From contig CM075988.1 of NCBI GenBank assembly GCA_038087875.1, positions 620,001 to 684,000 of the forward strand: 64,000 nt of DNA, in the 5' to 3' direction. This DNA comes from Malacoraja senta. Taxonomy: Eukaryota. A program made the translations under genes and the position numbers. The notes below the pieces were generated by a model, which did not search any database, had not been told where the DNA came from, and saw only the letters and a program-made list of their open reading frames with translations. How positions within the stretch are numbered: the first letter of the stretch is position 1; each line of letters opens with the position of its first letter. Below are positions 7,440-58,944 of the stretch, in pieces.

Positions 7440-7790
7440 CCACAACACCTGTACGAGCCCAGGAAAAGTTAATTCGGCCCACAATGTCCATGCTAGCCCT
7501 ACAGAAACCAGTCCCTTCATTCCACAACACCTGTACTAGCCCAAGAAAAGTCCCTTTTGTCCCACAATATCCATACTAGCCCTACAGAAACCAGTCCCTT
7601 CGTTCCACAACACCTGTGCTAGCCCGAGAAAAGTCCCATCGGCCCACAATGTCCATACTAGCCCTACAGAAACCATTCCCTTTGTTCCACAACACCTGTG
7701 CTAACCCAAGAAAAATCCGATCGGCCCACAAAGTCCGTACTAGCCCTCTGGAATCCAGACCCTGCACCCCACAACACCCATACTAGCCCT
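7440..7790. repeat. Tandem repeat, ~82-bp dimeric unit, about 4 copies, inside Helitron H1
   Basis: CCACAACACCTGT recurs at 7440, 7522, 7605 and 7687, alternating with a related CCACAATGTCCATACTAGCCC monomer. Confidence 0.85.
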
Positions 7791-8920
7791 CCAGAAAGCT
7801 CCCCTCCCACCGGCCACCGCCTGAAGCCCTGCCCCTCCACGGCTGCAGGACGCTCCCCCTACACTGCTGGCCCTGCCTGAAGCCTTCCCTCACCCCCTCC
7901 CCCAGCTGCAGGATGCTTTCCCCCCCCATAGGTCCCCACCTGAAGCCTCCCCCCGGCTGCAGGACTTAACCCCCCCCCCACACCGGTCCCCGCCTGAAGC
8001 CATCCCCCTCCCCCTTCAGGTGGGGGGGGGAGTATCCTGTAGCCCGGGGAAGGGGACGGCTTCAGGCGGGGGCCAGTGAGGGGGGGGAGCATCCTGCACT
8101 GGAGGGGGGAGGAAGGGGGAAGATGGAGAGGGGGAGGAGTGGGGGATGGGACAGGAGGGGACGGAGAGGGAGAGGGTATGGGAGTAGAGGGGGAGGGAGG
8201 AGGGTAGGAAGAGAGGAGAGTGGAGGATATTAAGGGAGAGGAGGGAACGGTGGGAGGGGGATGGGAAGAGGAGGGAGTTGGGAGGGGACATTGCGGGGGA
8301 GCGGACATTGAGGGGGAGGGGGGAGAGTGTTGCAGAGACGGGCAAAATATAGTGTACAACTGAGGCGCATTAGGGGGCCCCATGATTGGATGACGGGCGA
8401 ATCACTCGTACTTGGTGTCAACAGCGCATGCAACACGCACGCTGTTGTATCAGATCTAGGATTACAGAGTAGTAGCGGTCAAATATGGGACAAACCAATT
8501 TACCCAATATACAGGATGTCCCAACTAACACGGGACAGTTGGCAACCCTATGCCCCCCCCCCCTTTACATCATCTCCTGCCTCTTATCCCTCACCTTCCT
8601 GACTCTGTCCACACTCCCTCAGCCCAAGTCCAGCCCCCGCCTCATTTCTCCCCCATGTACACTACCATCTTCCCTCTTTGCTCAGTCCAGATGCAGTCTT
8701 CACTTGAAATGTCAACCATTCTCCGGCAGAAGCTGCTAATCCACCATGTTCAGCATTGGCTCTTAAACTATTTGCCAAGTAACCTTTGGGAAATGAAGTT
8801 CTTCCTACTATTACATCCCAACCCTGCAGCTTTTCCTGGAACTGCAGAGTTGAACACGATGGTGTTCCCAAAGTTCTAACAGACAGGAAACAGTTTACAG
8901 CCCAGTAAAATAAACACAAC

Positions 8921-44892: not shown

Positions 44893-45996
44893 TCTCTATA
44901 TTACTAAAACTCTCATCTAGTTTGTTTGCCCAGTTTGTATTTGCGAAAAAACAGTACACGATAGCGCTACAATTTTTGGCCCACCGTACTTACCATTGTC
45001 CTGTGATGTAAATTAAACAAGTTTCGTTCAGATTGATGGTATATTTTATGTTATTGATGTTTAAAATCATTTTTAAAAAATAACACAGTGCCCACACTAG
45101 CCCCTCGCCCACTAGCCCCATCCCAACCTGCTGTCTTTACTTGACAGTCGTCACAAAGGACACCCCAAGGACACCCCAGCCTTTGCACAATTTCAGACCG
45201 TCATCTTTTTTTCCCATCACAACAGCGACCCAACGGCTCCACGGGTAAGTTTCCTTCTATTTTAATTTCTGCCCCCCCCTCCCCCCTCCCCCCTCCCCCC
45301 GGCCCTGGGCTGGGATTGGAGCCGGTGCGGGGACCGGTGGCAGGGTGAGGCCGTGCCGGATACCCTCGGCCTCTCCCTCCCCCTCCCACAGCTCCAGGAC
45401 GATCGACCACCCCCCCAACAGCCCGCACCTCAAGCCCTCCCCCTCCCCCGACTCCAGCATGCTCACCCCCGGCCCCCCCCCCGCCAGCCCCCGCCTCAAG
45501 TACAACTTCATCGCCGTCCTGCTGGAGAAAACGGGGCCGGCGGTGGTTTTCATCGAGTTCCTGAGGAGGTGAGGCGGGAGACTGGGGGAGAGGAGGGAGT
45601 AGGGAGGGAGAGGGAGGGGAATGTAGGGGAGGAGAGAGAGGAGAGAGAGTGGGGAGGAGGGGAGATAGAGGGAGAGGGGTAATGGAGGGAGTGACTGAGG
45701 GCAGGGGGAAGGAGAGGTAGGGAGAGGTGAGGGAGGGAGTGGGGGAGGGGAGGAGGACAGGGAAAAGAGGGAGGGTGAAGAGGAGGGGGAGGGAGTGCTG
45801 AAGGATGAGGGGGAATGGAGGAGGATAGGGATGGCGAGGCACAGTTGGGGGAGGGTTGCCGTAACTCACATCACAACGGTGATCTCTGGTGTCACAACGG
45901 GGACCTGTCAGCTGCGTCTGCACAGTTGGGGGCTATGGGTGAGTGCTGGAGTATTGCATTGGGGGAACGGGACACAACGGGTCTCCCTTGGTCTAG
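44893..45996 (+). mobile_element. Non-autonomous Helitron H2 carrying captured host sequence
   Basis: A|TCTCTATATTACTAAAACTCT...GGGACACAACGGGTCTC..GTCTAG|T. Inserted between A and T with no TSD; the flanks rejoin as AATACAA|TAATACTTTATT. Confidence 0.88.
45474..45568 (+). pseudogene. Orphan HtrA-family (HTRA2-like) exon fragment inside Helitron H2
   Basis: [31 protein letters not shown](R) followed by AG|GTGAGG. No other HtrA exons were seen in the window. Confidence 0.8.
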
Positions 45997-46823
45997 TAAT
46001 ACTTTATTAGCCAAGTATGTTTTGCAACATGAGGAATTACATTTTCCAAGTCAGTCATACAATTAAAAAGCCTCGGAACACACAAAATTCATTTTAACAT
46101 GTTAAACAATAAACCTGTTATCCACTTGCAGACCCTGTCAGATGTAGGTTTGGCCCCAGTGGGCCAACTGACCTATCCTGGACATAATCTTCATAAAATA
46201 CAGTCAGTTCTTAGAGAATAAGCAGTGGGTGAAACCTGGTTGAACCTACTTTGATTCAATTTCGCCCCAAAGTAGTCCTTACAAGTTATGCTAAATCTCC
46301 CAATAAAGTTTTTCACACTTATTCTCAACCTGATAATGTCTCAACCTATGAGTATGAATCGGTCCATCAGCAATTACACTACCATCTGTGGTGGTCATCT
46401 GGGGTGGCCATTTGTCACCTTGGGGAGCAACTCTCAGGCTAAACTGAATACCCATCAAGCGAGCCTTCACTCCAAGGTCAGGAGAAATCTCACTCCATAA
46501 CATATTCGACACATCGTGTACCTTCGCAAAGGAGCTTTAACGATAACCTTGGGTTAGAAAGCAATCAATTTCACATCTCAACAGCTGTATAATACAATGT
46601 GCTTTTTGTTCCATTCGAGTCGGAGAGATCACCATGTACTTGAGCAATGGACTCAATATGTAAAAGAATGACTGAACTAAGAGGAAGGCACTGAGGCTGC
46701 TGTCCTTAAATCAGTTGCTAATGGATGATCACAATATCTCTTTGTAGTTCCCGCCTTTACTTTATTTGTCAGAGATACCTTATATACCAGGTGCCCACCT
46801 TACAAGTACTCCTGCAACCCTTG

Positions 46824-57593: not shown

Positions 57594-58944
57594 CTAGACT
57601 AAGTGGGACCCATTGGGTCCCAGTCACATGGGAGGCCTGGTCCCCCAACACAACCTGTTCACCCAACGCAAGAGTCCACCACTCACCCATAGCCCATAAC
57701 TGCGCAAGCGCAGCTCATTTCCCCTCATCCCCGAGCATTCCCTCCCCCTCCCCATGTGTGGGGGAGGAGGGGTGTATGTGGACGGGGAGGTGTAGATGGG
57801 GGGGAAGAGGGTGGTGTGGGGGGTGTGGGGGAGGGGGATGTGTGGCGGGGGATGTGGGGTGGGTTGGAGGTGTGTATGTGGGCAGGAGGGGGGAGGGTGT
57901 GTGGGAGGGTGTGTGTGTGGGAGGGGTGTGTGTGTGGGGAGGTGTGTGTGTGCAGGGGGGTTGTGTGGGGGGAGAGGGGTGTGTGGGCGGGGGGGAGTGA
58001 GCTCAGAGAAAAGATGGGGAAGAGCCATGGGGTAGAGGGGGGCATCATGGGGGAGGGGGGAGGACCCAGCAAGGGGGACCAGAGGGGTAGTGGCTGGAAT
58101 TGGCGGTGCTATGGGGACTCACAGCGGGCGCTGGTCGTTCTCCTCTGCAGGGATCAGAGTCTCCGCTTTCTGTTTGGTGACATCGGCGACATCTCCGACT
58201 CCGGGCTGTGCTGGGTCTCCGAATCTGGGCTGGGTCGGGTCTCCGACTCTGGGGCGGGGCTGCTTGGGGTGGGGCTGCTTGGGGCGGGGCTGCTTGGGGC
58301 CAGGTGGCTGCCTGGGGTGGGGCTGCCTGGGGCGGGGCTGCCTGGGGCGAGGCTGCTTGGGGCGAGGCTGCTGCTTGGGGCGGGGCTGCTTGGGGCGGGG
58401 CTGCTTGGGGCGGGGCTGCTTGGGGCGGGGCTGGTTGGGGCGGGGCTGGTTGGGGCGGGGCTGGTTGGGGGCGGGGCTGGTTGGGGGCGGGGCTGGTTGG
58501 GGCGGGGCTGGTTGGGGCGGTGCTGCTTGGGGCGGGGCTGCTTGGGGCGGGGCTGCTTGGGGCGGGGCTGCTTGGGGGCGGGGCTGGTTCGGGTAATCCA
58601 AAAGTCCGGTTGGGAACCTCCGCTGGCTTTCCTTAGCTCCAGTAAAGAAGCGGTGGCGCAGGAAGGGGTGGGCCGTCCCGGGAAGTGACAGGGGAAGAGA
58701 CTAATCCGCGCGGCGCAGACTGACAGGAGAAGAGGTCGATCTGCACACGCGCGGTTTTTAATATTTTTAAACCTCGCTAACTTTTATGACATTCAACCGA
58801 TCCTAATGAAACTTGGTGGACTTGCAGCACAGAACAGTGAGTGAACTGGCGAAAAATCGTTGCACTATCACAAACCGTTTTTGCGCAAATAGAAAGACCG
58901 CCAAAGCGGAAGATAACAAGATCAGAGTTTTAGTTATGTATAGA
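57594..58944 (-). mobile_element. Non-autonomous Helitron H3
   Basis: Minus strand: A|TCTATACATAACTAAAACTCT...GGGACCCAATGGGTCCC-ACTTAGT-CTAG|T. No TSD; the host CR1 rejoins as AGTCCA|TTATAAAGG. Confidence 0.92.
58251..58588. repeat. 15-bp G-rich minisatellite (GGGGCGGGGCTGCTT)n, ~22 copies
   Basis: Tandem array with CTT/GTT/CCT variants. Confidence 0.95.

Follow-up and report, generated by a model that had tools for sequence, protein, structure and literature searches.

A decayed Helitron in the skate Malacoraja senta carries the 3′ end of HTRA2 exon 1 and shares this cargo with an ISL2EU-like element

RESULTS

Structure of the Helitron at 44893–45996

The window, a stretch of 64,000 nt of Malacoraja senta DNA, harbors a Helitron of the derived 'AALL' subfamily at 44893–45996 (1,104 bp; plus strand, as are all features of the element given below). 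Judged from its termini, its insertion between A and T, its 3′ hairpin, and the RepHel partner, the family is a non-autonomous Helitron. The ends of the window copy (A|TC and CTAG|T) read A|TCTCTATATTACTAAAA on the left and GGTCTAG|T on the right, and a target duplication is missing, in agreement with the sequence-only reading, which had described a cleanly bounded TC...CTAG element in an A|T target. The 5′ terminal region (44893–45042), which begins with TCTCTATATTACTAAAA, shares 81% identity across 150 bp with the corresponding end of a decayed Rep/PIF1 Helitron (C1:272.25 Mb). The 3′ end (45969–45996) comprises a degenerate subterminal hairpin (45969–45985) and the CTAG. The stability of this hairpin was calculated as −3.6 kcal/mol in the window copy and as −6 to −8 kcal/mol in five of 11 other copies examined. 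On the right flank (45997–46040), a (TACAA)n-containing repeat continues; the Helitron interrupts this repeat between an A and a T. In a contig from DNA run X1, 44893 and 45997 are connected through ACAA alone; this paralogous empty site differs by only one microsatellite unit. None of the contigs of two DNA runs spans the window Helitron.

At 45474–45568 lies the 3′ end of exon 1 of HTRA2, a gene for a mitochondrial protease (PPPASPR...IEFLR plus two bases of an Arg codon; E 5e-9 to HTRA2). The frame starts at 45474 and ends with the last exon base at 45568, directly followed by the phase-2 splice donor GTGAGG (45569–45574; GT at 45569–45570, GAG|GTGAGG), as had been read from the sequence before. 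The purine-rich tail 3′ of the GT (45575–45840) may consist of captured HTRA2 intron 1 and/or of repeats expanded inside the Helitron. The captured piece begins well upstream of 45474, with family similarity from about 45296. The stretch 45296–45363 is common to older copies (alignment to copy L095 and junction list), where the PGAWAL-RLGLG segment of the exon follows; it is probably derived from HTRA2 exon 1, too. Two tandem copies of an exon-derived unit of ~60–70 bp cover 45364–45500, and immediately 5′ of this pair the hydrophobic/linker codons of the older copies are deleted. With 23% protein divergence from the family and without the hydrophobic segment, the window copy is one decayed member of a derived and partly deleted subfamily.

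A functional HtrA gene in the window was considered and rejected, because protease and PDZ exons were not found downstream; the lack of downstream protease exons had been noted earlier and extends to the complete 64,000 nt, which contain no other HTRA2 exon. At 7789–8112, a decayed array of the HTRA2-derived short unit was detected in both orientations and without the coding core, which indicates that the exon has seeded a minisatellite. A second Helitron, belonging to a related family, is situated at 57594–58944 on the minus strand. It ends in CTAG|T, contains a short tandem repeat internally, and lacks the HTRA2 core.

Origin of the captured piece

The identity of 23 out of 32 residues to human HTRA2, previously counted by eye, was reproduced in the alignment. 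In a search of solved structures, human HTRA2 chains matched at E 5e-9 and HTRA1/HTRA3 at 2e-3 to 1e-2 only. The A in PPPASP represents a change in the window copy (family consensus PPDSPR) and flatters the likeness to the human protein. An alignment of 11 copies matched elasmobranch HTRA2 first (sawfish, E 6e-23). The older family consensus comprises 77 residues, and the older copies keep about 77 codons. Its core is identical to elasmobranch HTRA2 in 26–27 of 28–29 residues, compared with 20 of 29 for the paralog on C15, and the upstream hydrophobic/linker part agrees with sawfish HTRA2 in 35 of 44 positions. On these alignments, the piece is assigned to HTRA2 exon 1 and not to HTRA1/3/4. 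A Pfam scan of the captured fragment and a homolog search with a 40-residue window peptide gave no match.

The phase-2 intron at this codon, which had been given before for HtrA-family genes, is present in both paralogs of the genome (AG|GT...AG|G). Library proteins with the motif reflect the same intron position: of 136, 38 end at this Arg and 88 continue with HPx. That the piece is an exon end with its donor argues for a capture at the DNA level. The motif SPRLKY is common to the captured piece and Leucoraja HTRA2; sharks and sawfish show FRF/FKF. This similarity to Leucoraja suggests that the capture took place in a skate-related lineage. At the position of human AAVPS, elasmobranch HTRA2 proteins contain AARPV, the ARPV of which we take to be the putative IAP-binding end. 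It is lost from the window copy, in which AVPS is absent as well, as had been noted.

The protease and PDZ exons of HTRA2 itself were not found in the assembly using PF13365, exon queries, two degenerate patterns, and residues 137–425 of sawfish HTRA2. The HtrA queries recovered only two paralogous genes (C1 and C15, 54–73%) and one weak match. An exon of an HTRA3-like gene (L047:400–440; G000:C1:273.156 Mb) shows two apparent single-base frameshifts, which are probably assembly errors. An HSPA12B-like query, a probable neighbor judged from a fused whale shark gene model, had no match in the assembly, and the Leucoraja HTRA2 model sits on a 64-kb contig. Both observations make an assembly gap or search insensitivity likelier than a loss of the gene; the negative result is therefore taken to hold for these queries and for an assembly that is incomplete. 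In the whale shark model (P0010), an HSPA12B-like part is fused to HTRA2 exon 1 and the model stops at the same Arg, which hints at neighboring genes and a mis-annotation.

Copies in the genome

A DNA search of the assembly yielded 323 candidates (40 scored) and a protein search 142 matches among the 150 scored of 288; 100 of 109 further protein matches were classified. The core was present in 166 of the 181 classified loci, and 153 distinct loci were left after the removal of 13 duplicates. Both Helitron ends were detected at 97 of these and one end at 31, both ends of a TIR element at 13 and one at five, and neither at seven; all locus counts are lower bounds, and 30 loci came from a TIR-end query, so the proportions do not equal genome shares. 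In a control with the wrong orientation, both Helitron ends were found at none of the 153 loci and one end at a single locus. The fragment thus recurs between Helitron termini elsewhere in the genome, which, together with the exon end and donor, supports the earlier proposal of a DNA-level capture by a Helitron rather than retroposition. Beyond that proposal, the fragment turned out to form a large multicopy family with longer, older copies, and the same piece occurs in an unrelated TIR element.

Exact A|TC junctions were present in 15 of 22 scorable 5′ ends and exact CTAG|T junctions in 49 of 73 scorable 3′ ends. A stem of 5–7 bp 5′ of the CTAG was visible in several family copies. The donor GT is retained at 101 of the 128 Helitron loci and at 12 of the 18 TIR loci. 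Ancestral ADVV codons were found at 96 Helitron loci and derived AALL codons at 31, including the window copy; in the AALL subfamily, the hydrophobic segment is missing and the short unit is repeated. The seven loci without ends were considered as the source gene. Inspection of six loci and three others revealed copies with lost or rearranged parts, and this candidate was rejected.

Rep/PIF1-encoding relatives

The decayed Helitron at C1:272.25 Mb has the same 5′ end as the family and an HTRA2 fragment cut 5′ of the donor, followed by frames for Rep (PF14214, E 4e-46) and PIF1 (E 3e-25), both of which are broken. Its 3′ end was looked for and not found, which counts against the explanation put forward below, as does the presence of HTRA2 cargo in only one of 11 Rep-helicase loci examined. 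In total, 112 Rep-domain matches were obtained in the genome. The younger intact RepHel ORFs (about 1,700 aa) have only the 3′ motif in common with the family and differ from it at the 5′ end. In the decayed element, about 1.2 kb of tandem HTRA2-derived units separates the 5′ end from the Rep frame (G000:C1:272,250,900–272,252,100; L192). Helitrons that are nearly identical and contain open RepHel frames of 1,500–1,770 aa (L303–L318, e.g., G000:C4719, C3619, and C1:40.97 Mb) suggest a young Helitron family that is possibly still active.

A second carrier of the exon

At 18 or more loci, the exon is located between 20-bp inverted repeats starting with AAGCGAG, and Helitron ends were detected at none of the 18. 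The two 20-bp repeats are 100% identical in the exon-less consensus. AT was found on both flanks in 23 of 31 cases, AAT on the left in 29 of 37, and ATT on the right in 33 of 40. An AT duplication, the target A|AT|T, and short TIRs are described for ISL2EU elements of the PHIS superfamily in the accessible text of PMC4482050. By its A|AT|T target and TIRs, the second carrier is classified as ISL2EU-like, a family known here from non-autonomous copies alone. It includes at least three size classes, one of about 710 bp, an exon-less one of about 1,300 bp, and an exon-bearing one of about 1,350 bp; the longer classes contain a fragment of a common short repeat (L071, L078, L082, L089; L243–L270).

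Among 30 loci obtained with an inner-backbone query, 16 had both TIRs without the exon and 10 both TIRs with the exon. The filled consensus differs from the empty one by an insert of ~300 bp. The empty form reads ...AAGGC-GAGGC-GGCGGGG, the filled form ...AAGGC-GAGGC-TGGGG[exon, donor, G-rich]GAGGC-GGCGGGG; microhomologies from Helitron/HTRA2 sequence are present on the left (GAGGC) and on the right (GAGG) of the insert. A 9-bp stretch, which also occurs in the short empty family, is kept in all 14 scorable exon-less copies and missing in nine of 10 scorable exon-bearing copies. This distribution favors an insertion over a deletion, as does the left breakpoint, which coincides with the end of HTRA2 similarity. 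With a host-derived insert, microhomology, and several dispersed copies, the exon-bearing family is a multicopy Pack-TIR.

Selection on the exon core

Uncorrected pN/pS ratios of the exon core were between 0.44 and 0.63. With a base-specific neutral model, the signal below 1 vanished and purifying selection was not significant in copies retrieved through DNA or TIR ends (p 0.11–0.63). The exception are the protein-ascertained copies (corrected pN/pS 0.69, p = 0.003), a value that counts against the main explanation and was put down to ascertainment. Off-frame upstream rows, which served as a control only, gave about 1.1. Several TIR copies contain frameshifts in the exon core. Overall, the copies look like decaying neutral cargo and not like working genes.

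DISCUSSION

Order of events

We regard it as highly probable that the window contains a decayed member of a Helitron family whose cargo, the 3′ part of HTRA2 exon 1 plus the donor, was likely taken from the gene at the DNA level, and that an ISL2EU-like element likely copied the piece from a Helitron by template switching. In a skate/ray ancestor, a Helitron would have acquired a portion of exon 1 together with the beginning of intron 1. This cargo spread to at least 128 loci and diversified into subfamilies, that of the window losing the hydrophobic segment and duplicating the short unit, and one Rep/PIF1-encoding copy carries it as well. A TIR element with the A|AT|T target gained the ~300-bp insert between microhomologies and spread to at least 18 loci. 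A Helitron copy, reached by a template switch, is moderately favored over the HTRA2 gene as the template of this insert, and the copies would have persisted as neutral cargo. We lean slightly towards a relay between transposon classes as a whole, in which capture and amplification by the rolling-circle Helitron were followed by a microhomology-mediated template switch into the cut-and-paste ISL2EU-like element and re-amplification, seeding well over 100 HTRA2 donors and an exon-derived minisatellite throughout a skate/ray genome.

The main rival to a Helitron template is a direct capture from the gene, in which Helitron and ISL2EU-like element took up the exon independently, the GC-rich first exon of HTRA2 being an exposed template; this course differs at the template step only, and we consider it possible but rather doubtful. 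The TIR and Helitron consensuses are identical (no diagnostic substitutions) with an open HTRA2 frame, and the TIR insert contains no Helitron-specific change, which fits two independent captures equally well. In addition, captures in bats and Xenopus show an excess of 5′ exons, according to the accessible parts of PMC4224331 and PMC12001565. However, at least 128 Helitron templates were available versus one gene, and the TIR piece, which is shorter at its 5′ side than that of the Helitron copies, is contained within the latter. The TIR copies are also less diverged (median 6.1%, n = 18, vs. 8.5%, n = 96; p = 1e-4), an age gap that may partly reflect the subfamily structure by which the Helitron figure is inflated. 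That the source locus was not found counts against the main explanation, since intron identity and transfer direction would be read from the gene. The reverse direction, with the TIR element capturing the exon and the Helitron acquiring it from there, would agree with the ancestral ADVV-type codons at all 18 TIR loci. The longer 5′ extent in Helitrons largely refutes it on sequence grounds: their copies reach into PGAWAL, matching Leucoraja HTRA2, where the TIR flank is the backbone of the exon-less copies. Moreover, insert-adjacent TIR backbone was not found in Helitron copies. We therefore judge this order of capture extremely improbable.

An entry of the fragment as a retroposed RNA copy, unspliced or partly spliced, has a precedent in bat Helitrons, which do receive retrocopies (accessible text of PMC4224331). 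At all loci examined, no copy runs on into exon 2; beyond exon 1, matches came only from the pair of paralogous genes, a PDZ-like sequence at 35%, and an alignment overrun (L182). Neither poly-A nor a target duplication was seen around the piece, which leaves retroposition quite unlikely. Another explanation takes the window copy for a used exon, belonging either to a real HtrA gene or to a host transcript into which the exonized donor is spliced. The GT donor is retained in the window and in most copies, and a captured NUBPL fragment of bats provides a host transcript with a splice site (PMC4224331, as far as accessible). The window, however, contains no other HtrA exon, no host exon was recognized by eye among its listed long ORFs, the copy is as diverged and truncated as described above, and a selection signal is absent. 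A role as used exon is accordingly very unlikely.

Significance and comparison with known systems

The family extends Helitron exon capture to cartilaginous fish. It also provides a rare multicopy Pack-TIR whose filled and empty forms occur side by side, which makes the breakpoints and the succession of events readable. If the relay is true, the cargo of one transposon class feeds another, an exon-shuffling route that surveys conducted per superfamily would miss. In practical terms, the copies swamp homology searches for HTRA2 and may mislead the annotation of skate and ray genomes. The sequence-only reading knew of no report of such a capture in cartilaginous fish, and none was found in the accessible literature, nor was a Helitron-to-TIR relay or a report joining HTRA2 with Helitrons or with skate transposable elements; Repbase/Dfam and supplements lay outside this search and may already hold the families.

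The following comparisons refer to the accessible parts of the cited reports. HelibatN3 of Myotis lucifugus contains the NUBPL promoter, 5′ UTR, exon 1, and partial intron 1 and is present in about 1,000 copies (PMC4224331). Like the skate family, it is a non-autonomous vertebrate Helitron that amplified a first exon with its donor to a high copy number. In contrast to HelibatN3, the host is a cartilaginous fish, and the skate cargo is without a demonstrated promoter and is additionally carried by a Rep/helicase copy and by a second superfamily. Heli1Xen1 of Xenopus laevis carries 19 CDS fragments in 64 insertions, 17 of the 19 from 5′ ends (PMC12001565). A 5′ coding fragment between Helitron ends and the growth of minisatellites inside Helitrons are common to both systems, whereas the skate fragment is found at 128 or more loci (at most 17 in Xenopus) and its copies are older (6–10% diverged). 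In platyfish Helitrons, the whole expressed gene texim is mobilized (PMC4021074); there, too, a fish Helitron moved host sequence, but the skate cargo is a non-coding fragment.

For TIR elements, a survey of Pack-TIRs/FoSTeST reported 370 cases in 100 animals, mostly single-copy and 87% hAT or Tc1/mariner, with four multicopy cases from frogs and alligators (PMC8277862). The skate element resembles these multicopy Pack-TIRs in the host exon within a TIR element, the microhomology at the breakpoints, and the later transposition. Unlike the Pack-TIRs surveyed, it is ISL2EU-like, reaches at least 18 copies, and likely used the cargo of another transposon as template. With the ISL2EU group it shares the A|AT|T target with AT duplication and the short TIRs, although the skate family was seen as non-autonomous copies only. 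The capture by the Helitron is thus a new instance of a known process; what is new is the same cargo in a second superfamily.
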